Both the position numbers and the translations under genes were made by a program. Below, piece by piece: positions 8,996 to 23,578 of a stretch of DNA of 64,000 bases. Within the stretch, counting starts at the first letter, position 1, and each line of letters begins with the position of its first letter. The notes under the pieces were generated by a model that made no database searches, was not told the DNA's origin, and saw nothing but the letters and a program-made list of their open reading frames with translations. The DNA is taken from NCBI GenBank assembly GCA_036171615.1, contig JAVHRK010000153.1, positions 8,758 through 72,757 of the forward strand. The letters run 5' to 3'. This stretch comes from Bacteriovoracaceae bacterium (GTDB taxonomy: Bacteria > Bdellovibrionota > Bacteriovoracia > Bacteriovoracales > Bacteriovoracaceae).

Positions 8996-9852
8996 GAATG
9001 AAACATCTCAAGTGAGTAGGAAAATGAAAACTCTTTTCCTTCTAGTAATTTAATAATACCTTCTTTGTTTTCCAGTTTTTGATCATGCGTGATTAAATCA
9101 GAAACTCCATGCCACGGCTCCATGCAAATAAATGGTACACTACCTGTGCCCCAAATTCCCATATAAGAAGTATTTATTCCCGATACTCGAATTACATGGT
9201 TTTGAGTTTTATTTATTAAGTCTACATATTTAGATCGTGGCCGTTTGAAGATTATTGCACCTTTAGAAAAAAGATCTGCACTTGGAGTCAGTCTTGTTTC
9301 TTTAAACATGATTTTTTTTCCAATATCTAAAAGACCTTCTTTCGTCGAAAAATAAGCTTCTTCTTCTTTTTCAAATTGAATTTCATAATCTTCGATTTTG
9401 TTTGTTTCAAAACCAGGATGAGCTCCAATTGAAAAATATATATCTTGTCGGTCAATATTTTTAACAGTGTAGGTTATGTTTAATTTTGCTGCTTCAAGTG
9501 AATAATGAATTTTTAATTCAAATAAAAAAGGATAATGACTGAAACTCTCTTTATTGGCCGTCAATACAAATTCACATTCATGAATTTCGGCTTGTGTGCA
9601 AACAAATTCCATATCTCGAGCAAAGCCATGTTGATTTAGTTGATATTTTTTCTCTTGAAAAAGATATTTATCATTCTTTAATTTCCCAACAATAGGAAAT
9701 AAAACAGGCGCGGAACGTTTCCATGCTTTATCTTCACCTGACCAAAGTAATTCACGGTTCCACGCGCGGTGAAACAGACGCTTCATTTCAGCCCCTTTTG
9801 AAGTGAGTTGTATTGTTAAAAAGCCATTCTCAATCTGGCACCATTCACTCAT
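8992..9852 (-). CDS. Aldose 1-epimerase family protein (LacX-like)
   Basis: APVLFPIVG, HGFARD, GAHPGF and CMEPW motifs; ATGA overlap with the next gene. Confidence 0.85.
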   Translation of the reverse strand: MSEWCQIENGFLTIQLTSKGAEMKRLFHRAWNRELLWSGEDKAWKRSAPVLFPIVGKLKNDKYLFQEKKYQLNQHGFARDMEFVCTQAEIHECEFVLTANKESFSHYPFLFELKIHYSLEAAKLNITYTVKNIDRQDIYFSIGAHPGFETNKIEDYEIQFEKEEEAYFSTKEGLLDIGKKIMFKETRLTPSADLFSKGAIIFKRPRSKYVDLINKTQNHVIRVSGINTSYMGIWGTGSVPFICMEPWHGVSDLITHDQKLENKEGIIKLLEGKEFSFSYSLEMFHS

Positions 9853-9919
9853 TGAAATTCCCCTCTAATTAATGATACAATGGACTCTCTAAAAAGATAA
9901 TCGTTTAAAGGTATAAAAA

Positions 9920-10867
9920 ATGAAAATTATCGAGCACCTAGAAAGGGCCAAGAATCCGCTTTTTAGTTTCGAGATTGTCCCACCACCTCGCGGACGTTCA
10001 GTTCAAGATATTATTGATATTGTTAAAGCACTTGCCCCACTAAATCCCCCTTGGATTGATGTGACAGCTCATGCCTCGTCAGCATATTATAATGAAAAGG
10101 ACGATGGAACTGTAGAACGAAAAATTTATAAAAAACGCCCTGGTACAATTGGCATATGTGGAATTATTCAAAATAGATTCAAAATTGATACTGTTGCTCA
10201 CCTTTTAAGTCTTGGATTTACAAGAGAAGAAACAGAAGATGCGCTTTTAGAGTTAAACTTCTTAGGTATTCATAATGTATTAGCACTACGTGGCGATAGT
10301 ACAAACTATAAGAAAGAAATTAGTCGGGATCGTTCTCAGAACAATTTTGCCTCTGAACTTGTCGAACAAATTGTTGACTTAAACCGTGGCAAACTTTTAG
10401 ACGAAGGAAATCACGGAGCAGACTTTGGCTTTGGCGTGGGAGTTGCCGGTTACCCTGAAAAACACTTTGAGGCCCCAAACCTCAAGCTTGATATTCAATA
10501 TCTGAAAAAGAAAGTTGAGGCCGGTGCAGAATATATAGTTACTCAAATGTTTTTTGATAATGCTAAATATTTTAACTTTGTGAAATTATGCAGAGAAGCT
10601 GGAATAACTATTCCAATTATACCCGGTGTGAAGTTATTAAGAAGTACATCACAGCTTGTAAGTATTCCTAAGAATTTCTATATAGATTTACCTGATCAAT
10701 TAGTAGATGCCATCTCTCATGATCCAAAAAACATTCTGGCAATAGGCGAAGAATGGACTACCAAGCAAGTCCAAGGCTTGCTAGAAGGTGGATGTCCAGG
10801 AGTACATTTTTATATTATGAACGACACGGCCACCATTGTGGATATCGTAAAAAAATTTCAAAGATAA
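9920..10867 (+). CDS. metF: 5,10-methylenetetrahydrofolate reductase
   Basis: [29 protein letters not shown] and PIIPG motifs; 1 nt gap before metH. Confidence 0.92.
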
Positions 10868-10868
10868 T

Positions 10869-13800
10869 ATGACAAAAAGACATGCAACACTCATAGAACT
10901 AGAAAATACCCTTAAAAATAAAATTTTATTTCTAGATGGTGCTATGGGCACCATGATTCAAAGATATCGTTTAGAGGAAAAAGATTTCAGAGAAATTTTT
11001 TTTGAAAATCATCCTCAAGATCTAAAAGGAAACAACGATCTTCTGAATTTCACAAGACCAGAAATTATTAAAGAAATACATACTCTCTATCTGGCCGCGG
11101 GTGCAGATATTATAGAAACAAATACTTTCTCTGGTACTCGTCTGGCTCAAAAAGATTATAATCTAGAACATATTGTTTATGACTTAAACTTGGCAGCAGC
11201 TAAAATTGCCAAAAGTGCATGTGATGAATTCATGCAAAAAAATCCAAATCGCAAGTGCTATGTAGCTGGCGCTCTTGGTCCAACAAATCGAACGGCATCA
11301 CTTTCTCCCGACGTAAATAATCCAGCTTACAGGGCCGTTACTTTTGATGAATTAGTTGAAAATTATTATGAACAAACAAAAGCCTTAATCGAAGGTGGCG
11401 TAGATATTCTATTACCTGAGACAACCTTTGATACTCTAAATTTAAAGGCCTGTATTTTTGCAATAGAAAAATATCAAGATGAAGTACAACTTAAGTTTCC
11501 ACTTATGCTTTCAGTTACCATTACAGATGCTTCAGGAAGAACACTGTCTGGTCAAACAGTTGAAGCTTTTTGGAATTCAGTTAGACATTCTCATCCACTC
11601 TCTGTTGGAATTAACTGTGCACTTGGTGCAAAAGAAATGCGTCCCTATATAGAAGAGTTATCTCAACTTGCTGATTGTTATATTTCTTGTTATCCAAATG
11701 CAGGACTGCCTAACCCCTTATCTCCCACTGGCTATGATGAAACTCCGTTAAAAACTGCACAATTTGTAAATGAGTTTGCAGAAAGTGGTTTTATTAATTT
11801 ACTAGGAGGTTGTTGTGGTACAACTCCAGATCATATTGCAGCGATAGTCAAAAAAGTTCATAAATGCCCCCCGAGAGTCCCTCCTGCTCCAAAACATTCA
11901 ACTCGTATTGCTGGACTTGAAGCATTTACCATTGAAGATAAACTTGGACATCCATTTTATATGGTCGGAGAAAGAACAAATGTCACCGGCTCACCTTTAT
12001 TTTCCAAATTAATTAAGGCCAATAATTTTGATCAAGCCCTTACTGTTGCCCGTCAACAAGTTGAAAATGGTGCCAATATTATCGATATCAATTTCGATGA
12101 AGGATTACTAGATTCAAAAAAATGCATGACTCATTTTTTAAATTTAGTGGCATCCGAACCAGATATAGCAAAAGTTCCAATCATGATTGATTCCTCAAAA
12201 TGGGAAGTAATTGAAGCAGGACTTAAGTGTGTACAAGGTAAATCAATTGTCAATTCGATCTCCTTAAAAGAAGGCGAAGAAAAATTTTTAGAGCAAGCTA
12301 AACTTATTCAAAGATATGGTGCAAGTGCCGTAGTGATGGCATTTGATGAAAATGGACAGGCATCTTCTAAAGATGAAAAAGTTCGAATATGTAAACGTGC
12401 TTATGATTTATTAATTTCAAAATTACAATTTGATCCCTGTGATATTATTTTTGATGCAAATATTTTAACCGTAGCAACTGGAATTGAAGAACATGATTGC
12501 TATGCTGTAAATTTCATAGAAGCAGTCCGAGAAATCAAAAAACTTTGTCCTGGGGCACTTACCTCAGGTGGTATCTCTAATCTTTCTTTTTCGTTTCGTG
12601 GAAATAATTTAGTAAGAGAAGCTATGCACACCGTCTTTTTATATCATGCTATTAAGGCCGGACTTGATATGGGGATTGTCAATGCCGGAATGCTTGGCGT
12701 TTATGATGAGATTAATCCAGTACTTCGAGAAAAATGTGAAGCTGTTGTTTTAAATAAACATTCTAATGCTACTGAAGAATTGCTTATTTTGGCCGAATCT
12801 TTGAAAAATCAAAATACTAAAAAAGAAGACATCGTTGAAGAATGGAGAGACCACTCTGTCGAAGCAAGAATTGCTCATTCACTAGTAAAAGGTGTTGATA
12901 CTTTTATTGAGATAGATACTGAAGAAGCACGAATTAAATATGGTGCCCCCCTTAATGTTATAGAGGGCCCACTTATGAGTGCCATGAAGATAGTTGGAGG
13001 GCTTTTTGGCGAAGGCAAAATGTTTCTCCCTCAAGTTGTTAAGTCGGCCAGAGTGATGAAGAAGGCCGTAGCTTATTTAGAACCTTTTATGAATGCGAGT
13101 GAAGATCATCAACAGGGTGTTTTTGTCATAGCAACAGTTAAAGGCGACGTTCACGACATTGGTAAAAATATCGTGGCGGTAGTTTTGGCCTGTAATGGTT
13201 ATAAAGTAATAGATTTAGGAGTTATGGTTTCCTGTCAAAAAATTCTAGAAGAAGCAATTCGGTTGAAAGCTGATGTTATCGGTTTATCAGGTTTAATTAC
13301 TCCTTCATTAGATGAAATGATTCATAATGCGAAAGAAATGGAGCGACTCGGACTTAAAGTTCCACTACTAATCGGTGGTGCAACAACTTCGAGGGCCCAC
13401 ACGGCCATTAAAATTTCGCCTCATTATAGTGGCCCAATAGTTCACGTAGGTGACGCATCTTTGGTTATTGAAGTTTGCAATAAACTCTTAAGTCCAACTT
13501 TGCACGCTGATTATGTAAAACAATTGAAAATAAATTATACAGATATACGCGAGCGTTTTTTACAACGACAAGAAACCCCAACGTCTTTGCTTTCTTTTAC
13601 TGATTCGCAAGAACGAAAGTTTCAATCCAATTGGGATAAATTAGAAATTTCTCAACCTTCACGCTTAGGTGTATTTAATCTAGAATTTACACTTGAGGAA
13701 ATATTACCCTATATAGACTGGTCTCCTTTCTTTTGGACTTGGGAGCTAAAAGGCACATACCCAAAAATTTTAGGACATACCACCTACGGACAAGAGGCCC

Positions 13801-14564
13801 AAAAAATATTTGATGACGCTCAAATTCTCTTAAAAGATATTGTTAAAAATAAACGCTTTTCTCCTAAGGCAGTTATCGGAATTTTTGAAGCTTATTCTAT
13901 TAATGAAGATATAGTAATGTTCTCAGGAGAGAAAAAAACAACTTTTCATTTTTTACGTCAACAAAAAGAAAAACTCGAAAGTAATGATTCCAAGCAGGAG
14001 TTTAACTACTGTCTTTCAGACTATATAGCTCCAAAAAGTACAGGAATCAAAGATTATTGCGGTGGATTTGCAGTTACTACGGGTCATGAGGTTGAAGAGT
14101 TTGCTAAATCTTTTCAAGCAAAAAATGATGATTACAGTTCTATAATGGTAAAGGCCTTGGCCGATCGATTGGCCGAAGCTCTGGCCGAATTGGCCCATAA
14201 AAAAGTAAGAGATATTTTTACATTTGGTCAATCCGAAAACTTGGCACCAGAAGATTTAATAAAAGAAAAATACCGTGGAATCAGACCGGCGCCTGGATAT
14301 CCAGCTTGTCCAGATCATACAGAAAAAGAAATTTTATGGCAGATTCTAGATGCTCAAAAAAATTCAGGTATAACACTTACTGAAAGTTTTGCTATGAATC
14401 CACCAAGCTCAGTCTCTGGATTTTATTTTAATCACCCACAAGCAAAATATTTTGCTGTCGGTAATATTGATAAAGATCAAGTTGAAGATTATGCAAAAAG
14501 AAAAAAATTATCTATTCTATTAATTGAAAAATGGTTAGGCCCAAACTTGAATTATGAACCCTGA
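10869..14564 (+). CDS. metH: Cobalamin-dependent methionine synthase
   Basis: [15 protein letters not shown] (Zn), GERTNVTGS (pterin domain), GDVHDIGKN (B12 binding) and [14 protein letters not shown] (reactivation domain). Confidence 0.97.
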
Positions 14565-14997
14565 AAGTTTAACAGATCTGATTTTACATAAAGGTGATGA
14601 CTGGAAACCAAGTCTACTTAATGCACGTGAAGTATTACAGGATAAATTTTTAAGCGATAAATCACTTATCCGAATTGCAATTAATTCAACCCAAATTACT
14701 CACTTTAATACAATTATAAAATTTCTCTATCAAGATTCTAAAGAACGACCTGTAGGGATTGCTGGAATTGATTATTTAATAAAAGCAGTTAATTATTCCA
14801 ATTACTCATTTAAGGATTGGATCATTGTTATAGATCGATTTAGCCAATGGATTCAGAAAGAAAATAGGCAGACTTCCTTTTTAAAATTACTTGGATATTT
14901 GCAGTGTTGTGAAGAATCGCCTGAAACTAAAGATATTAGTAAACCATTTATTGATTTAGTAAATGAAATGTTAGAGCAATATGGCTTTGTAGGTTAA
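14554..14997 (+). CDS. Hypothetical protein, 147 aa, in the met operon
   Basis: Overlaps the metH stop and ends 2 nt before the next gene; no motif recognised. Confidence 0.6.
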
Positions 14998-14999
14998 AC

Positions 15000-15656
15000 A
15001 TGAAAATAACCGGAATAGGTAGTCTTCCACATGACTCAGTCATTAAAGCAGTTGCATATTCACTGAGACACGATTTGCCCTTTCTACCTCAACTGACAGG
15101 CCTTGGGGAAAGAATGATTTCACAGGTGATGAATAAAAATGAATTATCAAAAAAATACCAAGCACTTCAATTGTTTACAGAAAAAATTCTAGAAAAAAAT
15201 ATTTCCCAATTTAAAATTCAATTAGCAGGCCCTGAAACCTGTGGGACAAGTGAAGTACTGATCATTGAACAAATTAACAGTTTTTTAGAGTTTTTTGATC
15301 AGTACAAACTTAAGCCTATTATTTTTATTGATGAGCCTATATTAACTTTAAAATCCGATCATTTAAATAAAGTTTTTATAGAATTAAAAAATCTTGGTGT
15401 GAATTCAGGACTACATTCTTGCGCTCAGTTCGAATGGGAAAAAATCGAGTGCCTAGAGACAACCTATATATCATTCGATCTAAATCTAATAAAACAACCT
15501 GAAATAACCTCAAAAATTAAAATTGCTGGATTTCAACCATTTATCACTAAAGAATTTAATTATTCTGGAGAATGGATCTCATCTAATTGTGGACTAGCAA
15601 GTTATACGGAAAAGGATTGTGAAATAATTCTTAGAAATTTAGAAAATCACAAATAA
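15000..15656 (+). CDS. Small MetE-like (cobalamin-independent methionine synthase catalytic-domain family) protein
   Basis: TGIGSLPH and PFLPQL N-terminus, FIDEP, candidate Zn ligands in GLHSC, SFD and SNCGL. Confidence 0.6.
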   Translation: MKITGIGSLPHDSVIKAVAYSLRHDLPFLPQLTGLGERMISQVMNKNELSKKYQALQLFTEKILEKNISQFKIQLAGPETCGTSEVLIIEQINSFLEFFDQYKLKPIIFIDEPILTLKSDHLNKVFIELKNLGVNSGLHSCAQFEWEKIECLETTYISFDLNLIKQPEITSKIKIAGFQPFITKEFNYSGEWISSNCGLASYTEKDCEIILRNLENHK

Positions 15657-15682
15657 AAAAGGCTTCTTGCGAAGCCTTTTTT
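15655..15682. terminator. Bidirectional intrinsic terminator
   Basis: AAAAAAGGCTTC-ttgc-GAAGCCTTTTTT perfect stem between convergent genes. Confidence 0.87.
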
Positions 15683-15717
15683 ATATTATTTAACACTTAA
15701 TAAAAAGTGGTTAATAA

Positions 15718-15945
15718 CTAGTGAGCTGGAGCAGCAGCAGGTGCAGCTTCAGTAGCAGGTGCAGCTTCAGCAGTTGGTGCTGGAGCAGCTTCAGTAGTAG
15801 GAGCAACAGCAGGAGCAGCTTCAGCAGCAGGAGCAGCTTCAGTTGTTACAGCAGCAGGTGCAGCCTCAGTAGTAGCTTCTTCTTTTTTAGAACAACCAAA
15901 AGAAACAGCAGAAACGATAAGAACTAGAGCTAATAAATTTTTCAT
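15718..15945 (-). CDS. Small Ala/Pro/Glu/Thr-rich lipoprotein with six EAAPA repeats
   Basis: AAGGAG RBS 8 nt before ATG 15945; signal peptide ending SFG-C; repetitive low-complexity mature part. Confidence 0.75.
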   Translation of the reverse strand: MKNLLALVLIVSAVSFGCSKKEEATTEAAPAAVTTEAAPAAEAAPAVAPTTEAAPAPTAEAAPATEAAPAAAPAH

Positions 15946-16061
15946 CTTCAATTCTCCTTAAATCCGTTAAGATGACAGTTAACGCGCACAAAAATAGTGA
16001 ACTGTTAATTTTTACTACTAAAACAGTATTTAAGTCAACATACTTCTACAAAAACAGTAGA

Positions 16062-16583
16062 TTAAACTGCTTTTAAGACACCGTGCACCAAGTCTGAATA
16101 TTGAGTCATCCCCCATATTACTACTCTTTGCTCACAGGTTCTTTCCCTAACCGGCATTACTTTTCTACTATTTCTTACGTTTAAAAAGAAGTTTTCTAGG
16201 TTGATCATATGGGTATTTAAAATTGTTTCTTCATCTGCAGTTAACCAAATTTTTTTAATTTTTAAAAGTGAATGAGACTCCTTTTTTTGGACAATATCTT
16301 TTTTAAAATATTCATTTACTAAAGATGTAAATAATTCTTTTGCTTCTTCCTTGATATTATCATCACTGTTTATTCCAGCTAGCCACTTCAAAGAAGATTC
16401 TTTATCAATTGAATAACTTCCTCTTTGATATTGAATAATATTTTTCATCAACAAATTGGGTAAAATATTCAATAAAAAAGCATGTTCTAAATTGGTGTCA
16501 ATAGACAATTCATGTATATTTTTATCTTTTTTTGCAATTGATTCAATTATAATTCTTTCAAGTATTATTAATCCATCTTTCAT
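16062..16583 (-). CDS. Hypothetical protein with probable N-terminal winged helix-turn-helix
   Basis: ERIIIESIAKKDKNIHELSIDTNLEHAFLLNILPNLLMKNIIQYQRGSYSI follows a wHTH pattern; RBS-like GGAG upstream. Confidence 0.5.
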   Translation of the reverse strand: MKDGLIILERIIIESIAKKDKNIHELSIDTNLEHAFLLNILPNLLMKNIIQYQRGSYSIDKESSLKWLAGINSDDNIKEEAKELFTSLVNEYFKKDIVQKKESHSLLKIKKIWLTADEETILNTHMINLENFFLNVRNSRKVMPVRERTCEQRVVIWGMTQYSDLVHGVLKAV

Positions 16584-16601
16584 GTTTTTCTCCAGGTTAA
16601 T

Positions 16602-16937
16602 TTAAATTGCTGTATGAACTTGCGTCGGTATTTTTACTTCGTTTTTAATATTCCAAATTGCCATTTTCCGTTGCATGAAATGTTCAATTTCACTTATGCT
16701 TTGTGGACTTAGCTTATTAAAACAATCTTGAGCAAGCTCCTCTAGACCTTGATTCATTCCCATCATATTCTTCACCTTAAGAAGAAAAATTTCATACTCA
16801 GCTAGCTTCATTAAACTTCCATTTAATAATCGAAATACTCGTGTCTGTTGAATTCCGGTATCGACCGAAATTTTTTTGAGAGTAGGATACTGATTTAAAA
16901 GCATGTACTGATCTAGAATAGTTTTTTGTAAATTCAT
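16602..16937 (-). CDS. Small helix-turn-helix (XRE-like) protein
   Basis: PTLKKISVDTGIQQTRVFRLLNG HTH pattern; start moved to ATG 16937 after the AAAGGGGG RBS. Confidence 0.55.
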   Translation of the reverse strand: MNLQKTILDQYMLLNQYPTLKKISVDTGIQQTRVFRLLNGSLMKLAEYEIFLLKVKNMMGMNQGLEELAQDCFNKLSPQSISEIEHFMQRKMAIWNIKNEVKIPTQVHTAI

Positions 16938-16962
16938 ATGGCCCCCTTTGTACAAATTACAA

Positions 16963-16980
16963 AGCAGGCCTTGTGCCAAA
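16963..16980 (-). promoter_or_regulatory. Sigma54 (RpoN) -24/-12 promoter
   Basis: Minus strand TTTGGCACAAGGCCTGCT has TGGCAC and exact GG-N10-GC spacing, about 25 nt before ATG 16937. Confidence 0.7.
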
Positions 16981-18039: not shown

Positions 18040-19101
18040 GTGAATAAATTTAATATCAAATTAAGTTATGTAATCTTTTTTATTTTCATTTTTAGTAGCT
18101 ACGTATTTGCTCAAGAGAATATGCTTTTAGAGAATGAAAAAAACTCAATTTCTATTTTTCAAAAAACAGCAAGCTCAATAGTAAACGTTTCAAATATGAA
18201 GATTGGTCGGGGACCATTTGATATGGATGCAACTGAATTTGAAGCAGGAATGGGATCTGGATTTATTTGGGATCTGCAGGGCTATATTGTGACTAATTTT
18301 CATGTTGTAGATAAAGGTGAATCTTTTCTTATCTCATTCAAGGATGATAAAAAACAATATCGAGCAAGATTAATAGGAGCAGATCCTAAAAAAGATATTG
18401 CAGTATTAAAATTAAATGAATTGCCAAAATCTCTAAACCCTATCATTGCGGGAGATTCAAAGACACTACAGGTAGGTCAGAAAGCATTGGCCATTGGAAA
18501 TCCACTAGGACTTGATCATACACTTACAACTGGAACCATTTCCGCCTTAGAAAGAAAAATTCAAGGTTATGGCGGGGTTTCAATTAATGGAATGATTCAA
18601 ACTGATGCCGCTATTAATCCTGGAAACTCTGGTGGCGCACTACTCGATTCACGAGGGAAATTAATAGGTATAAATGCAATGATCTTTAATGGTGCAGGAG
18701 CACAAGCAAATGCTGGTTTAGGTTTTGCAATCCCTGTAGATACAGTTAAAGCGATAGTACCTCAAATAATTAAATATGGAAAAGTCATTCGTCCAGGTTT
18801 GGGCATCGCCATTCTAGAGGAAAACTACGCGGCAAGATTTGGAGTTTACCAAGGAGTAATGATTAAAGCGCTAGACCCCAAGGGCCCATCAGCTAAAGCA
18901 GGCTTACAAGGGATTAGAAGCGATCGTCGTGGCCAATATTATATAGGTGATATTATCACCGGTATTGATTCAATTCCAATCAATAACTTTGATGACTTAT
19001 ATTCAACACTAGATAAATATAAAATTGGTGATCGAATTAAATTAAAATATATTAGAAACGAAAAAATTAAAATAGTAGATATTACTCTCGTTCAGATTTA
19101 A
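18040..19101 (+). CDS. HtrA/DegP-family trypsin-like serine protease with one PDZ domain
   Basis: GSGFIWD, TNFHVV (His), DIAVL (Asp), INPGNSGG (Ser) and C-terminal PDZ; start moved to GTG 18040 after GGAG. Confidence 0.92.
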   Translation: MNKFNIKLSYVIFFIFIFSSYVFAQENMLLENEKNSISIFQKTASSIVNVSNMKIGRGPFDMDATEFEAGMGSGFIWDLQGYIVTNFHVVDKGESFLISFKDDKKQYRARLIGADPKKDIAVLKLNELPKSLNPIIAGDSKTLQVGQKALAIGNPLGLDHTLTTGTISALERKIQGYGGVSINGMIQTDAAINPGNSGGALLDSRGKLIGINAMIFNGAGAQANAGLGFAIPVDTVKAIVPQIIKYGKVIRPGLGIAILEENYAARFGVYQGVMIKALDPKGPSAKAGLQGIRSDRRGQYYIGDIITGIDSIPINNFDDLYSTLDKYKIGDRIKLKYIRNEKIKIVDITLVQI

Positions 19102-19801
19102 TAAATATTTTTTTTGCATTACTTGGGGATTCTTCTACTAGGAGGCCAAAAGTATCGATATGCCATATTTGATCAGCATATTCTGATGCAAGGTCAGCAT
19201 CATGACTGCTTAATAAAATTGCCAATCCTCTTTCTAGTGAAATCTTTTTTAACATATTCATTAAATCAATTTTAGATGGAATATCCAAATAAGTTGTAGG
19301 TTCATCTAACAATAAAACTTTTGGATTTTGTGCGAGTGCGCGAGCAATACTGACTTTTTGTTTTTGACCATCGCTCAAATCTTGTAAATATGAATCTTTA
19401 AGTTCAAAAATATTCATTAAAATTAAAATATTTTTTACAAAGTTATTATCTTGGTCACTTAAAACCCCCCTTGTATTTGAATAAGGAGATCTACCTAATG
19501 ATACTAATTCTGAGACAGTTAAAAAATCTACTTGAATTTTGTCAGTTAAAACAATTGCTATTGTTTGGGCAAATTCTTTAACTGTAAAATCATGCGCAAG
19601 TCTATCGGTTATAAGTATATTCCCAGCTTTTAAAGGAATTAACCCAGAAATTGATTTTAGTAAACAACTTTTGCCAATTCCATTGACTCCCATAAGTGCA
19701 ATGATTCCACTTTCTGAAATAGTGGCACTAATATTTTCTAAAATATTTTTTTCTTGATAACCAACGGTAATATTTTGAAGTTTTAGCAATGTCGAACTCA
19801 T
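19082..19801 (-). CDS. Cobalamin/iron-complex ABC transporter ATPase (BtuD/FecE-like)
   Basis: GVNGIGKS Walker A, LSDGQKQK signature, LLLDEPT, SSHD; ATGA overlap with the permease gives start 19801. Confidence 0.88.
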   Translation of the reverse strand: MSSTLLKLQNITVGYQEKNILENISATISESGIIALMGVNGIGKSCLLKSISGLIPLKAGNILITDRLAHDFTVKEFAQTIAIVLTDKIQVDFLTVSELVSLGRSPYSNTRGVLSDQDNNFVKNILILMNIFELKDSYLQDLSDGQKQKVSIARALAQNPKVLLLDEPTTYLDIPSKIDLMNMLKKISLERGLAILLSSHDADLASEYADQIWHIDTFGLLVEESPSNAKKIFIKSERE

Positions 19802-20748
19802 TGATGTAAATTCCTTTGGTGGTACAAGTAAATAATTACAACAGGGGCACCAAAAAATCCTAAGATTGTATTTACTGACAAAGACCATGAAGGTGTTAAT
19901 ACAAGTAATGATTCCGCCAGTAGGGCAATTACACTTCCAAAAAGAAATGTTGCCGGTAATACATAATTCATATTACTAGACTTCAAATAGAATCGAGCAA
20001 GATGAGGTGCAATTATTCCAATAAATCCAACTGGGCCGCAAAACAAAGTGACAGTCGAAATTGAGAATGCACAAACAGTAATTAAAACATTTTTAATATT
20101 AGTAACATTCGCTCCCATACTCTTAGCGTAGTTTTCACCAAGCTGGAACAGATTAAGTGATTTTGGTAAAAAGAGTAGCGGAATGAGGGAAATAACTCCC
20201 ATTAAAATAAAATATGGTAATTCTTCAATTGTAACATTTCTAAAACTACCAAGAGTCCATATCAGATAGTTTTTAACTTGGAGGTTTGTACTAATATTCA
20301 TTAAAAAAGAAATACAACTTGATGCAAAGGTTGAAATTAATAACCCAACAATTAAAAGGCTAAATCTGCTAAACTTTTTATAAAGGAAAAAAAGTAAAAT
20401 ACCGAACACACTGAAAGCTCCAAACAATGAAAGTACCGTTGCTCCAATTTTATATAAAAAGCTAGGGAAGAAACTAGCGCCCATTACCCATAAAGCGACA
20501 AACAAACTTGAGCCTGCGCTTACCCCTAAAATATCTGGGCCGGCCAATGGATTTTGAAAAAAGACTTGCATCAGTAAACCTGCAGTTGCCAAAATTCCTC
20601 CTGACAATAATGCCACAACAACTTTGGGAAGGCGTAACTGCCAAAAAATAGTTTGATTAAAGAGTAGGCCAGCTTCTCCATAGCTCAATAAAAACAGAGA
20701 AGCTATTATTACTAAAATTATTAGAATAATAAATTTAAAATTTCTCAT
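19798..20748 (-). CDS. Cobalamin/iron-complex ABC permease (BtuC/FecD-like)
   Basis: LRLPK, QNPLAGPDILGVSAG and GFIGIIAPH FecCD motifs. Confidence 0.88.
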   Translation of the reverse strand: MRNFKFIILIILVIIASLFLLSYGEAGLLFNQTIFWQLRLPKVVVALLSGGILATAGLLMQVFFQNPLAGPDILGVSAGSSLFVALWVMGASFFPSFLYKIGATVLSLFGAFSVFGILLFFLYKKFSRFSLLIVGLLISTFASSCISFLMNISTNLQVKNYLIWTLGSFRNVTIEELPYFILMGVISLIPLLFLPKSLNLFQLGENYAKSMGANVTNIKNVLITVCAFSISTVTLFCGPVGFIGIIAPHLARFYLKSSNMNYVLPATFLFGSVIALLAESLLVLTPSWSLSVNTILGFFGAPVVIIYLYHQRNLHQ

Positions 20749-21809
20749 AATTTTTTATACCATAAAAGCTTGTGTTGAATAAAAATTTCTGGAAAAAACA
20801 TCGTTGCATAATCTTCAAGTAACAAATCAGGCCTGGACATCCCCATTTCCCAATAATCATTTGCCCCATCAGCACTAATTCTATTTTGGTTATTATAAAT
20901 ATTACTTGTTTTAATATTTTTATAGCGCGAGTCAGATTTTATAAATGATAAATTAGTCCAATTATTTTGAGTTAGCCAAATATCTGGCACAGATGCTATC
21001 AAATAAAGATCTTCAAGACTTCGACGTTGTGTTGATGAACTCTTACTTGAAAGTAAAAGCTCACCTCCGGCATCATTGATTAATTTAGCGAGGTCACTTT
21101 CACCTCCACATGTCACCCACTTCCCATTCTGAATATCACCGATTAAAACTTTTCTTCTTTTTTTTATTGTTTCAAGTTTGTTTTTTATAAGATTATATCT
21201 TAATAAAATATCGTTAAAGATTTTTATGGCCAGCTCTTCCTTATTATAAAAACTCGCAATATAGACAAGCCATTCTGCACGTGCCAAAGAGCTTTTCTCA
21301 AGAAAATCATCGTTTAAAACGATTGGTATTTTTAGTTTTCTAAACTTAGAGATTAATTCATTTGACTGGGAGTTTAACTCATAAGTCATCACGAGATCTG
21401 GTTTGATTTTTAGTAACTCCTCAGCAACTAGTGGATGAGAAATATTGGTGATTTTATTTTTAATAAAATGATTGGAATAAATATATTTTTTGCCCTGAAA
21501 ACCCAAAAGGCTATCTTCCAAGGAAAGTAACTCTAGGGCCGGCAATTGTGTAGTTGATGTCAAAACTATTTTTCTTACTGGTGTTTCTATTTGAAATAAC
21601 TTAGATTCACAGGACAATTCAGTATTTTTTGATTTTAAAATTATTTGATCTAGTCCACGATGGAGGATCCTATACCCCTTGTAATAATCAATTGAAAATG
21701 ATTTTGATACCATTGGACTATAAGTATGTTCTGGCTTGATCGATTGGCAATCACTGGCTAAAAGGAGAGAGGAATATAAAAAAATAAATGGATAATACCA
21801 ATTCTGCAT
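20745..21809 (-). CDS. Cobalamin/iron-complex periplasmic binding protein (BtuF-like)
   Basis: Signal peptide, RKIVLTSTT, EELLKIKPDLV, LARAEW and RPDLLLED motifs; operon with permease and ATPase. Confidence 0.8.
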   Translation of the reverse strand: MQNWYYPFIFLYSSLLLASDCQSIKPEHTYSPMVSKSFSIDYYKGYRILHRGLDQIILKSKNTELSCESKLFQIETPVRKIVLTSTTQLPALELLSLEDSLLGFQGKKYIYSNHFIKNKITNISHPLVAEELLKIKPDLVMTYELNSQSNELISKFRKLKIPIVLNDDFLEKSSLARAEWLVYIASFYNKEELAIKIFNDILLRYNLIKNKLETIKKRRKVLIGDIQNGKWVTCGGESDLAKLINDAGGELLLSSKSSSTQRRSLEDLYLIASVPDIWLTQNNWTNLSFIKSDSRYKNIKTSNIYNNQNRISADGANDYWEMGMSRPDLLLEDYATMFFPEIFIQHKLLWYKKL

Positions 21810-21874
21810 AATCTTATTCTAAAGGTCTGAATTTTTCTTGTAAAGGATTAGCTTGTGACTTACTCTAGCAGGCT

Positions 21875-23578
21875 ATGGCCCTATTTTTACTATTTCTTTT
21901 TTCTCGACTTTTACTTGCAGATGATACCGTCGTAATTACTGCAGACCGTATTAAAACAGATCTTCATAAATCGACAAGCAATATCATCTTGCTAGATAAC
22001 AAAACGATCTCTGAGGCCAATGCTCAAACTCTACCGGAGCTCTTAAGAGATAACAGCGATATTCATATAGCTAATGGTAGTATTTTTTTAAGAGGCACTG
22101 ACTCTTCTCACGTCTTAATCATTTTAGATGGAGTGCCACTTAATGATCCTAGCAATCCAAATAGGTCTTTCGATATAAGTAGACTCTCCTTAAATAATAT
22201 TAAAAATGTTCAAATTTTAAAAGGGGCCCAAGGACTACTATATGGTGCTAATGCTATTGGAGGTGTAATCCTTTTGACTAGTCATACACAAGCTACCACG
22301 CATACAACAGGATCAAGCTTTCTCTCATATGGAACATATCAAACTATTAATTTTGGCGTTAATGCCCAAAAGAAAATTGATATTCACCAGCTTTCAATTG
22401 GTGCTGAATATTTTGGCACAAAAGGATTTTCTGCTGCTAATTCTCTTCAAAATTTAAATGCAGATGCTGACGGTGAAAAACGCTCAACTCTCAATTTACA
22501 CTTAATTTCTGATTTCAACTCACATCAGTCGACAGAGCTGAGTTTAAGATATAATCACTCTCTCCTCGATTTAGATAATTGTGGCGGGCCTGGTTGTGAT
22601 GACTTAATTAATCAACTTACAAATGAAGAATTATTTTCACATATTCAATTTAATCAAATTTGGGATAATGAATTAAACGAAACCCATTTTTATTTCAATC
22701 GTGGTAAATATTCGCACCTAAATCACTCATCAACTTCAAACAGCTTAAACAAGGGGGAAATTAATAGTTTTGGCATTAATCACTCAAATTTTTTTACTGA
22801 TAATTTTACTCAAAATATCAATTTCGAATTTGCTAAAGAAACTAATCAGCTTCAACAATCAAATGAAAACACCAGTCTTTTTGTCTATCATAAATATGAT
22901 AAAGGTAATTGGATTAGTAATTTTGGTACAAGAGTTGATCATAACAAAATTTTTGGTGACCACTTTACGTATAAAGCCGCTGTTGCCAATCAATTATCAC
23001 CTGCTCAACTCCTTCGCTTAGCTTACTCTACAGGGTTTACTGCACCTGGACTGTATCAATATCTTGATCCTGTTTATGGCAATTCTTCGCTTCGTCCAGA
23101 GAAAAGTTATACACTAGATCTTGGACATGAATGGACGACTGGTTCAACCCAATTACATACAACTTTTTTTATGACAAAGATTTATGATCGATTTACCTAT
23201 ATAGCAGTATTGAAAAAAACAATTAATACAGGTGTTTCATACATTAATGGGCTAGAAGAATCATTCAACACTAATTTTTCTAAAACTAGTATGACATTGC
23301 TAACATTTAAACTTTTAAGACGGCCACAGACTTTACTAAAAAATACATTTTTTTATCATGAATTAAGTTTTGAAAGTGAATATATTGGAAATCGATTAGA
23401 CTATAATGAATTAGGCAATATAGTGAATACCCCGGCCTATTTTATTTCCCATCTTAATTATTCATATAACGACTATTTTCTAAAAATAAAAAATATTTTC
23501 AATACAGAATATGAAGAAGTTTATGGCTATGGAACCGGAGGAAGAATCATAACAGTTGGAATTAAAAAATCATTTTAA
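21875..23578 (+). CDS. TonB-dependent outer-membrane receptor, BtuB-like
   Basis: TonB box TVVITADR, plug LRG...VLIILDGVP and LYGANAIGGVI, C-terminal NIFNTEYEEVYGYGTGGR...F; divergent from the ABC importer and near metH. Confidence 0.8.
   Translation: MALFLLFLFSRLLLADDTVVITADRIKTDLHKSTSNIILLDNKTISEANAQTLPELLRDNSDIHIANGSIFLRGTDSSHVLIILDGVPLNDPSNPNRSFDISRLSLNNIKNVQILKGAQGLLYGANAIGGVILLTSHTQATTHTTGSSFLSYGTYQTINFGVNAQKKIDIHQLSIGAEYFGTKGFSAANSLQNLNADADGEKRSTLNLHLISDFNSHQSTELSLRYNHSLLDLDNCGGPGCDDLINQLTNEELFSHIQFNQIWDNELNETHFYFNRGKYSHLNHSSTSNSLNKGEINSFGINHSNFFTDNFTQNINFEFAKETNQLQQSNENTSLFVYHKYDKGNWISNFGTRVDHNKIFGDHFTYKAAVANQLSPAQLLRLAYSTGFTAPGLYQYLDPVYGNSSLRPEKSYTLDLGHEWTTGSTQLHTTFFMTKIYDRFTYIAVLKKTINTGVSYINGLEESFNTNFSKTSMTLLTFKLLRRPQTLLKNTFFYHELSFESEYIGNRLDYNELGNIVNTPAYFISHLNYSYNDYFLKIKNIFNTEYEEVYGYGTGGRIITVGIKKSF

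Follow-up and report, generated by a model that had tools for sequence, protein, structure and literature searches.

What a protein of 218 amino acids (aa) does at the end of an operon that already encodes a complete methionine synthase is the question raised by one stretch of Bacteriovoracaceae DNA (64,000 nucleotides, hereafter the window; GenBank assembly GCA_036171615.1, contig JAVHRK010000153.1, positions 8,758 to 72,757 of the forward strand). Four co-directional open reading frames (ORFs) on the + strand, metF, metH, ORF147 and ORF218, occupy window positions 9920-15656. The names carried by homologues assign the genome to Bacteriovorax, a predatory bacterium. An earlier note, made from the sequence alone, took the last of them for either an unusually small methionine synthase of the MetE kind, dependent on methylcobalamin or on the 147-aa protein as a partner, or a decaying relic. 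The reading favored here is that ORF218 may be a core methionine synthase of minimal size, with a methyl-corrinoid as its methyl donor; we give it an even chance, with activity, zinc binding and donor all predicted properties.

Fold and active site of ORF218

The alignment-based AlphaFold2 model of ORF218 on its own is a complete small TIM barrel (predicted local distance difference test, pLDDT, 92.3; predicted TM-score, pTM, 0.90), a point that the earlier note had wanted such a check to decide. It has eight beta strands, and of helices 6 and 7 only loops are left. In an exhaustive VIA-align search the best match was MesD (Protein Data Bank, PDB, entry 3RPD; Z 17.1, root-mean-square deviation 2.8 A, 209 of 218 residues), followed by the MetE C-terminal domain (1T7L residues 404-725; Z 15.9), uroporphyrinogen decarboxylase (UroD; Z 14.8 and 14.5) and the Methanosarcina MT2-type methyltransferase 4ay7 (Z 14.1), with 205-209 of the 218 residues covered across these matches. 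The ten best Foldseek matches in the PDB were all Thermotoga maritima MetE (E 5e-5). The model superimposes on both MetE and UroD structures, which places ORF218 in the UROD/MetE-like TIM-barrel superfamily. A best homology to UroD, foreseen in the earlier note as a possible refutation, did not appear, MesD or MetE standing first in each structure search; with the zinc and homocysteine residues aligned as well, the proposal of an unusually small MetE-type zinc barrel has held up at the level of model and alignment.

Sequence searches hardly reach this relationship. ORF218, as a single protein or as a profile, found nothing significant in Pfam, NCBIfam or the PDB sequences. PF01717 gave no match at E<=1 to ORF218 or to the 25 other members of a 26-sequence alignment, and none anywhere in the window's own genome; only two distant relatives of ~320-330 aa reached it, at 24-27 bits. 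PF01208 (URO-D/MtaA) did not match ORF218 either, and UroD/MtaA-like structures rank under MesD and MetE. Alignment of the family profile with Escherichia coli MetE by hhalign gave E 0.023 and a probability of 2%, with the correct residues paired. Fold and residues together suggest, with about even confidence, that ORF218 is functional and belongs, as a loop-deleted form, to the lineage of MetE catalytic barrels; it is a candidate "mini core methionine synthase."

Core methionine synthases have been defined by residues, in E. coli MetE numbering the zinc ligands H641, C643, E665 and C726 and the homocysteine contacts S433, E484 and D599; Asp instead of E665 is found also in active MesB (PMC7857596). 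When the C-terminal domain of E. coli MetE was aligned with 31 relatives of ORF218, including both miniature (mini) and long forms, six of these seven functional residues proved invariant: S8 (S433), D111 (D599), H139 (H641), C141 (C643), D160 (E665) and C197 (C726) pair without exception in the 31 sequences. The same six are kept in divergent Bacteriovorax paralogues and in long forms adjacent to MetH. So aligned, H139, C141, D160 and C197 would supply the four zinc ligands, with Asp in the place of E665.

The motifs that had first drawn attention to the protein are all present (TGIGSLPH at 4-11, DEP at 111-113, HSC at 139-141, SFD at 158-160 and NCG at 196-198), and they are not a product of chance: many of their positions are invariant in 26 homologues down to 29% identity. 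The 26 invariant columns of that alignment include I6-G-S-L-P10, D111-E-P113, H139, C141, S158, D160, C197 and G198. Two further invariant elements, E/D37-x-M39 and K72-x-Q74, belong to the family itself and have no MetE equivalent. Set beside MetE and the relatives of ~320-350 aa, the mini form is without five surface segments, which in E. coli MetE are one of 51 aa (479-529), and 562-573, 608-614, 675-684 and 698-711.

Family, distribution and genomic neighborhoods

A profile search of 1.84 billion representatives returned 1251 clusters at E<=1e-3, 645 of them at E<=1e-10. Lengths in the family are bimodal, about 215-260 aa (the mini forms) and about 320-360 aa (the long forms). ORF218's own clade spans 214-260 aa; its closest relatives are of equal length and 51-59% identical, and others of 225-260 aa are ~30% identical. 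In the maximum-likelihood tree, the mini forms group together (Shimodaira-Hasegawa-like approximate likelihood-ratio test, SH-aLRT, 83), the long forms lie outside, and the mini forms contain a Bacteriovorax clade (SH-aLRT 97) and an anaerobe clade (SH-aLRT 100). A search aimed at fused forms above 453 aa found none, itself weak evidence, and relatives of 363-410 aa have no additional Pfam domain. None of the long forms reaches an NCBIfam methionine-synthase cut-off; some of them give weak PRK00957 matches (20-33 bits; cut-off 258 bits) and two of them give sub-threshold MtaA/MtbA matches, the weak matches of relatives being mainly to methionine synthase models. Named members are all annotated "hypothetical protein," and Atlas clusters are auto-named "URO-D domain-containing."

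Characterized core methionine synthases measure 308 and 343 aa, and Mes families extend to at most 386 aa (PMC7005905, PMC7857596); the papers searched contain no description of one below 308 aa. At 218 aa, ORF218 lies outside the single-domain range of ~300-390 aa typical of MesA-D. Length and catalytic residues are nevertheless kept across the mini forms of Bdellovibrionota, Planctomycetota, Omnitrophota, Bipolaricaulota, DPANN and the candidate phyla radiation (CPR). Compared with its 57%-identical orthologue on contig L119, ORF218 has saturated synonymous sites and a conserved protein. Relatives occur in only three of 28 same-genus genomes, the window's own counted. As judged from predicted fold and alignment, the family is a variant of the core methionine synthases that has lost loops, is widespread and has so far gone undescribed.

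Phylogenetic profiles speak to function. Four closed genomes (two Omnitrophota, one Bipolaricaulota and one Thermoplasmata) encode S-adenosylhomocysteine (SAH) hydrolase and have neither PF02574, the homocysteine domain of MetH, nor PF01717. Among 50 further genomes bearing a mini form, none has PF01717 and eight have PF02574 (five Planctomycetota, a Halobacteriovoraceae metagenome-assembled genome, one Omnitrophota and one Nanoarchaeota fragment). Of 121 evenly sampled Omnitrophota genomes, 27 have a family member (mini in 3, long in 24), 69 have PF02574 and two have both, so that MetH is found in 2 of 27 family-bearing genomes versus 67 of 94 without the family (odds ratio 0.03; Fisher p 1.7e-9, a value that overstates the evidence because the profiled genomes are mutually related). 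A complementary distribution of family and MetH is the expectation for an alternative methionine synthase, and judging by gene content the family seems to supply many uncultured anaerobes with their sole methionine synthase.

The same genomes carry information about the methyl donor. When DPANN, CPR and Bdellovibrionota are set aside, 39 of the 40 genomes with a mini form encode the corrinoid iron-sulfur protein (CoFeSP, PF03599), all five Planctomycetota included; among 14 control genomes, only two score over the cut-off. Methylenetetrahydrofolate reductase (MTHFR) is found in 36 of the 50 mini-bearing genomes and in none of nine from DPANN, CPR and Methanosarcinales. The B12-binding profile PF02310 was uninformative, its matches being dominated by B12-radical-SAM enzymes.

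Genomic context was surveyed by a scan of one genome per species, which gave 140 species with an ORF218 relative (80 loci inspected), and by a metagenome scan in which a single-protein query found no locus and an alignment query nine. About 20 Omnitrophota-type loci have the order PurH-FolE-MINI-FTHFS-FchA-MTHFR-FolD-CooC-CODH on one strand, and in another Omnitrophota lineage a long form lies directly 3' of MTHFR. In Bipolaricaulota/Acetothermia-type loci, the mini gene stands beside genes for CODH, AcsE, AcsD, AcsC, RACo, CooC, formate dehydrogenase and NuoEF-like proteins; this neighborhood is a Wood-Ljungdahl cluster. DPANN and CPR loci pair the mini gene with a 324-aa radical SAM gene, and these genomes lack MTHFR and CoFeSP and must therefore use another methyl donor. 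The adjoining radical SAM gene, of ~324 aa, was seen at five loci from Nanoarchaeota, Woesearchaeota and Parcubacteria.

In Planctomycetota, the neighbors are uninformative. Many of these loci share an arrangement of their own: next to the mini gene lies the gene for a conserved ~515-aa protein, in numerous cases together with one for a ~650-aa protein, both lacking a Pfam domain, with two CNNM/CBS transporters and a histidine kinase upstream.

In Bdellovibrionota, the neighbor of the mini gene is MetH. The order metH-ORF147-mini occurs in the window, in genome G031 and on contig L119, and in genomes G013 and G024 the mini gene and metH lie within 2-3 kb of each other. A Halobacteriovoraceae locus has MetH followed by a 316-aa form, and on five metagenome contigs a complete MetH is followed directly by a long form. 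The MetH proteins of these six loci are 31-35% identical to that of the window, and the accompanying ORF218 relatives, of 316-389 aa, keep all catalytic residues; the pairing of metH with a MetE-like gene thus recurs outside Bacteriovorax.

Methyl donor and competing explanations

In the mechanism we envision, zinc bound by H139, C141, D160 and C197 would activate the thiol of homocysteine, itself held by S8 (at the carboxylate) and D111 (at the amino group), probably with the aid of the family-specific E37 and/or Q74, and the activated thiolate would attack a methyl group to give methionine. The donor would most likely be a methyl-corrinoid, as for MesA and MesB, and not free methyl-tetrahydrofolate (methyl-THF). 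In Wood-Ljungdahl anaerobes this would be the corrinoid iron-sulfur protein; in Bacteriovorax, methylcobalamin would take its place, whether in free form or bound to the B12 domain of the co-transcribed MetH; MetH is loaded from methyl-THF, the product of MetF, whose gene opens the operon. ORF218 would then serve Bacteriovorax as an accessory second methionine synthase.

A methyl-corrinoid is favored because of the co-occurrence with CoFeSP, the pattern that defines MesB (PMC7857596), because of the precedent of Dehalococcoides mccartyi, whose core enzyme uses methylcobalamin and not methyl-THF (PMC7005905), and because of the further loss of MetE surface, the missing E484 segment and the four other barrel loops counting for a corrinoid donor. 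From the earlier proposal of a methylcobalamin- or partner-dependent enzyme, the corrinoid donor survives as the best-supported option, and the 147-aa protein as partner has to be given up on evidence described below.

Several observations weigh against this reading, in addition to the relatedness of the profiled genomes. E484 falls in the 51-aa segment missing from the mini form and has no alignable counterpart there; E/D37 or Q74 may, to judge from the alignment, replace it, and in MesB the E484 equivalent is equally uncertain (PMC7857596). The sequence link between ORF218 and PF01717 is weak and only transitive, running through the hhalign result and the two long relatives. With MTHFR in none of nine DPANN/CPR members and a single weak CoFeSP match among the nine, no one donor fits all clades. 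The window's own genome (94% completeness) has no PF03599 match, so that the CoFeSP feature of the MesB type is absent, and it lacks any small free-standing corrinoid carrier; the B12-binding proteins it encodes comprise MetH, a pair of large mutase-like proteins and radical SAM enzymes. Its MetH is complete with homocysteine domain, which makes a second corrinoid-dependent methylase look redundant, and a B12-independent enzyme beside MetH would make better physiological sense. Finally, the operons of Omnitrophota and Bacteriovorax link the mini gene to MTHFR, which equally suggests methyl-THF.

These last points lead to the strongest alternative, in which the zinc-homocysteine chemistry is the same and methyl-THF is the direct donor, ORF218 being a miniature B12-independent back-up for MetH as MetE is in E. 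coli. We regard this as unlikely, if still a serious contender. The operon opens with metF, which is co-transcribed and makes the proposed substrate; Omnitrophota loci carry FTHFS, FchA, MTHFR and FolD, and in one case a long form comes right after MTHFR; MTHFR is encoded by 36 of the 50 mini-bearing genomes; and coexistence with MetH would be explained in a probable B12 scavenger with an importer 4 kb away. Set against this, ORF218 lacks the N-terminal folate domain of MetE and five barrel loops, and has Ser84 at the position of the MetE Trp that we take to stack on the pterin. MTHFR is missing from all nine DPANN, CPR and Methanosarcinales carriers, co-occurrence with CoFeSP exceeds that with MTHFR, and no metF lies beside the five metH-adjacent long forms. 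The D. mccartyi core enzyme, moreover, takes methylcobalamin only (PMC7005905).

It is also conceivable, and in our estimate about as unlikely, that ORF218 is a zinc thiol-alkyltransferase resembling MetE whose task is not net methionine synthesis; it might act on another amino-acid-like thiol or selenol, use another alkyl donor, or remove or transfer methyl groups in the service of MetH or corrinoids. An intact MetH coexists with the family in Bacteriovoracia and on five other contigs, and presence in 3 of 28 congeners (the window's own counted) implies that the protein is dispensable there. The neighborhoods show no connection with methionine in DPANN/CPR, where a radical SAM gene adjoins, or in Planctomycetes, and a like suspicion has been voiced for distant MesB-like proteins whose genomes encode a methionine synthase anyway (PMC7857596). 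The invariance of S8 and D111, the residues for the carboxylate and amino group of homocysteine, argues for methionine synthesis instead, as do the complementarity with MetH in Omnitrophota and the many genomes that encode SAH hydrolase and no other candidate methionine synthase.

Membership in the URO-D/MtaA branch, as a uroporphyrinogen decarboxylase or as a methylcobamide:CoM-type MT2 enzyme acting on a thiol that is not an amino acid, is very improbable. The Z scores of UroD and 4ay7 lie little under that of MetE, and the Atlas auto-name points the same way. Yet MesD and MetE come first in both structure searches, the MetE-specific homocysteine-binding motifs IGSxP and DEP are invariant, the weak Pfam and NCBIfam matches of the relatives are mainly to methionine synthase models, and UroD has no zinc site. 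Least credible of all is a functionless, decaying relic of a longer core MetE under relaxed selection, the other option of the earlier note: ORF218 is ~100 aa below any characterized core methionine synthase (308-343 aa; PMC7005905) and most congeners lack it, but the barrel model is complete and confident, relatives at 51-59% identity have invariant catalytic residues, the family numbers ~1250 clusters with length and catalytic residues conserved across phyla and mini forms clustered in the tree, and the frame is intact, tightly coupled to the upstream genes and of a GC content matching the locus.

The corrinoid-fed core enzyme can be taken one step further, as a tentative proposal that we consider possible and somewhat doubtful. 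A loop-less MetE barrel of ~220 aa might represent a fifth type of core methionine synthase, the smallest known and so far unrecognized, and a detachable module that activates homocysteine and is able to dock on any methyl-corrinoid carrier, whether CoFeSP, where it would be the sole synthase, or the B12 domain of MetH in trans. The Wood-Ljungdahl anaerobes (Omnitrophota, Bipolaricaulota and anaerobic Planctomycetota) would use CoFeSP; in Bacteriovoracia and other bacteria, full-length MetH would feed a second, separate catalytic module.

The operon, its surroundings and known enzymes

Table 1. Features of the metF-ORF218 operon and of the importer near it, in window coordinates
Feature	Position	Strand	Basis or remark
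Promoter-like site, TTGAAA-18-TACAAT with extended TG, 5' of metF	9852..9881	+	Top sigma-70-type score in 9700-16100
metF, methylenetetrahydrofolate reductase, 315 aa	9920..10867	+	Pfam MTHFR, E 5.6e-61
metH, full-length cobalamin-dependent methionine synthase, 1231 aa	10869..14564	+	NF007024, 1955 bits
ORF147, all-helical MetH-linked accessory	14554..14997	+	Overlap with metH; homologues 3' of metH
ORF218, predicted small (beta/alpha)8 Zn/homocysteine barrel of the MetE type; minimal core methionine synthase (candidate)	15000..15656	+	AlphaFold2 model, structure matches, residue alignment
Bidirectional intrinsic terminator, closes operon	15653..15684	both	14-bp stem, 4-nt loop, T-runs on both strands
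Importer ATPase	19082-19888	-	
Importer FecCD permease	19798-20748	-	
Importer Peripla_BP_2 binding protein	20745-21809	-	
TonB-dependent receptor, 567 aa, BtuB-sized	21875-23578		Divergent from importer

Coordinates, junctions and terminator confirm the tight run of four genes that had been noted before, ending at one terminator: gaps of 1 nt separate metF from metH and of 2 nt ORF147 from ORF218, and metH overlaps ORF147 by 11 nt (ATGAACCCTGA). The metF product scores 277 bits against TIGR00676, slightly below the cut-off of 294. Pfam recognizes all five domains of MetH (S-methyl_trans, Pterin_bind, B12-binding_2, B12-binding and Met_synt_B12), and its translation contains the motifs GINCALG and GGCCGTTP, which we take to hold the zinc-cysteine ligands. 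The promoter-like site is a consensus match only, such sites being no commoner in the region than in shuffled sequence. Rfam found no riboswitch in the whole window, neither for SAM nor for cobalamin. At 0.30-0.31, the GC content of ORF147 and ORF218 differs little from the window's 0.33.

The terminator directly follows the ORF218 stop and is common to a convergent ORF at 15718-15951 (-). Its product, lipoprotein-like and 77 aa long, has a signal peptide with a ...SFGC lipobox at its end, after which come about eight TEAAPA-type Ala/Pro/Thr repeats. The operon is flanked on its 5' side by unrelated housekeeping genes (dnaG, rpoD, a SNF2 helicase, UDG and an aldose epimerase) and on its 3' side by psd, htrA and two ORFs without assigned function. 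The two ORFs (173 and 125 aa; 16062-16979, -) have no Pfam match; in many congeners, a 173-aa and a ~113-aa ORF follow metH-ORF147.

ORF147 is a lineage-specific, translationally coupled accessory of MetH and not a partner of ORF218. This follows from its distribution, because 25 of 28 congeners have metH-ORF147 and mostly lack ORF218: in those 25 genomes, as well as in one further genus, homologues overlap the metH end by the same short stretch and lie directly 3' of it, only three of the 28 have an ORF218 relative, and an ORF147 profile matched nothing beside the mini gene at the 80 loci of other phyla. The homologues are 42-68% identical and share 34 invariant columns, among them Q117-C118-C119-E120, S122-P123-E124 and three Trp residues. 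The AlphaFold2 model (pLDDT 91) has eight helices. Pfam, NCBIfam and Atlas gave no match, and Foldseek and VIA-align no credible fold relative (best Z 6.0 over 71 residues, at the level of helical-protein noise). ORF147 may be a chaperone of MetH, a B12-handling factor or a reactivation factor.

The B12-type importer to which the earlier note alluded was located at 19082-23578 as a BtuCDF-type ABC importer with a TonB-dependent receptor; cobalamin is its putative substrate, with no cobalamin riboswitch found by Rfam in the window, and the use of prey-derived methyl-B12 suggested in that note would be a conjecture.

If the proposed function is right, it would close a methionine-synthase gap in metabolic reconstructions of several large uncultured groups. 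Those searched were Omnitrophota, Bipolaricaulota/Acetothermia, Wood-Ljungdahl Planctomycetota and some DPANN and CPR, in which SAH hydrolase is present and MetH, MetE or a known core enzyme is undetectable. ORF218 would also define a minimal MetE-type catalytic barrel, at 218 aa, and help to tell the parts needed for zinc-thiolate chemistry from those that bind the donor. The recurrent pair of metH and a MetE-like gene, together with the MetH-coupled ORF147 family, suggests that cobalamin-dependent methionine synthase is surrounded by accessory functions yet to be described. In annotation, the family is now labeled just "hypothetical protein" or "URO-D domain."

Comparison with known systems places ORF218 among the MetE-type enzymes at varying distances. 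With the C-terminal domain of MetE (E. coli ~420-753; T. maritima 1T7L, 1XPG, 3BQ5) it shares the barrel and has identical residues at S433, D599, H641, C643 and C726; it differs in the Asp for E665 and in having no N-terminal folate/polyglutamate barrel. MesA, the methylcobalamin:homocysteine methyltransferase of methanogens (~308 aa, PRK00957), is likewise a core enzyme with a corrinoid donor, which for ORF218 is proposed; MesA is confined to methanogens, and the relatives of ORF218 score far under the PRK00957 cut-off.

MesD (Shewanella, PDB 3RPD; Acinetobacter ACIAD3523), an O2- and MesX-dependent enzyme of aerobes, is the best structural match, and is found in aerobes that often also have MetH. 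It is only 16% identical to ORF218, is longer (~340 aa) and depends on MesX (DUF1852), encoded beside it; ORF218's own neighbor, ORF147, has no Pfam match and is unrelated to MesX. MesX (PF08908) gave no match in the window's own genome, and the control genomes were equally silent.

A further parallel is MesB, the core-MetE of D. mccartyi (343 aa, a methylcobalamin:homocysteine methyltransferase; PMC7005905, PMC7857596), membership in which has been defined by a score of 173 bits or more against the D. mccartyi protein DET0516 (Price et al., PMC7857596). ORF218 is ~120 residues shorter, with five surface segments deleted, and goes undetected by PF01717. Its family occurs in Omnitrophota, Bipolaricaulota, Planctomycetota, DPANN, CPR and Bdellovibrionota, phyla not discussed for MesB, and in Bacteriovoracia the mini form lies beside a full MetH without CoFeSP. 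The two have in common a single MetE-type barrel and no folate domain, predicted zinc ligands of the pattern H-x-C...D...C with Asp for Glu665, an E484 region that is not conserved, and, for the family, a strong genomic tie to the CoFeSP of the Wood-Ljungdahl pathway, often as the sole candidate methionine synthase.

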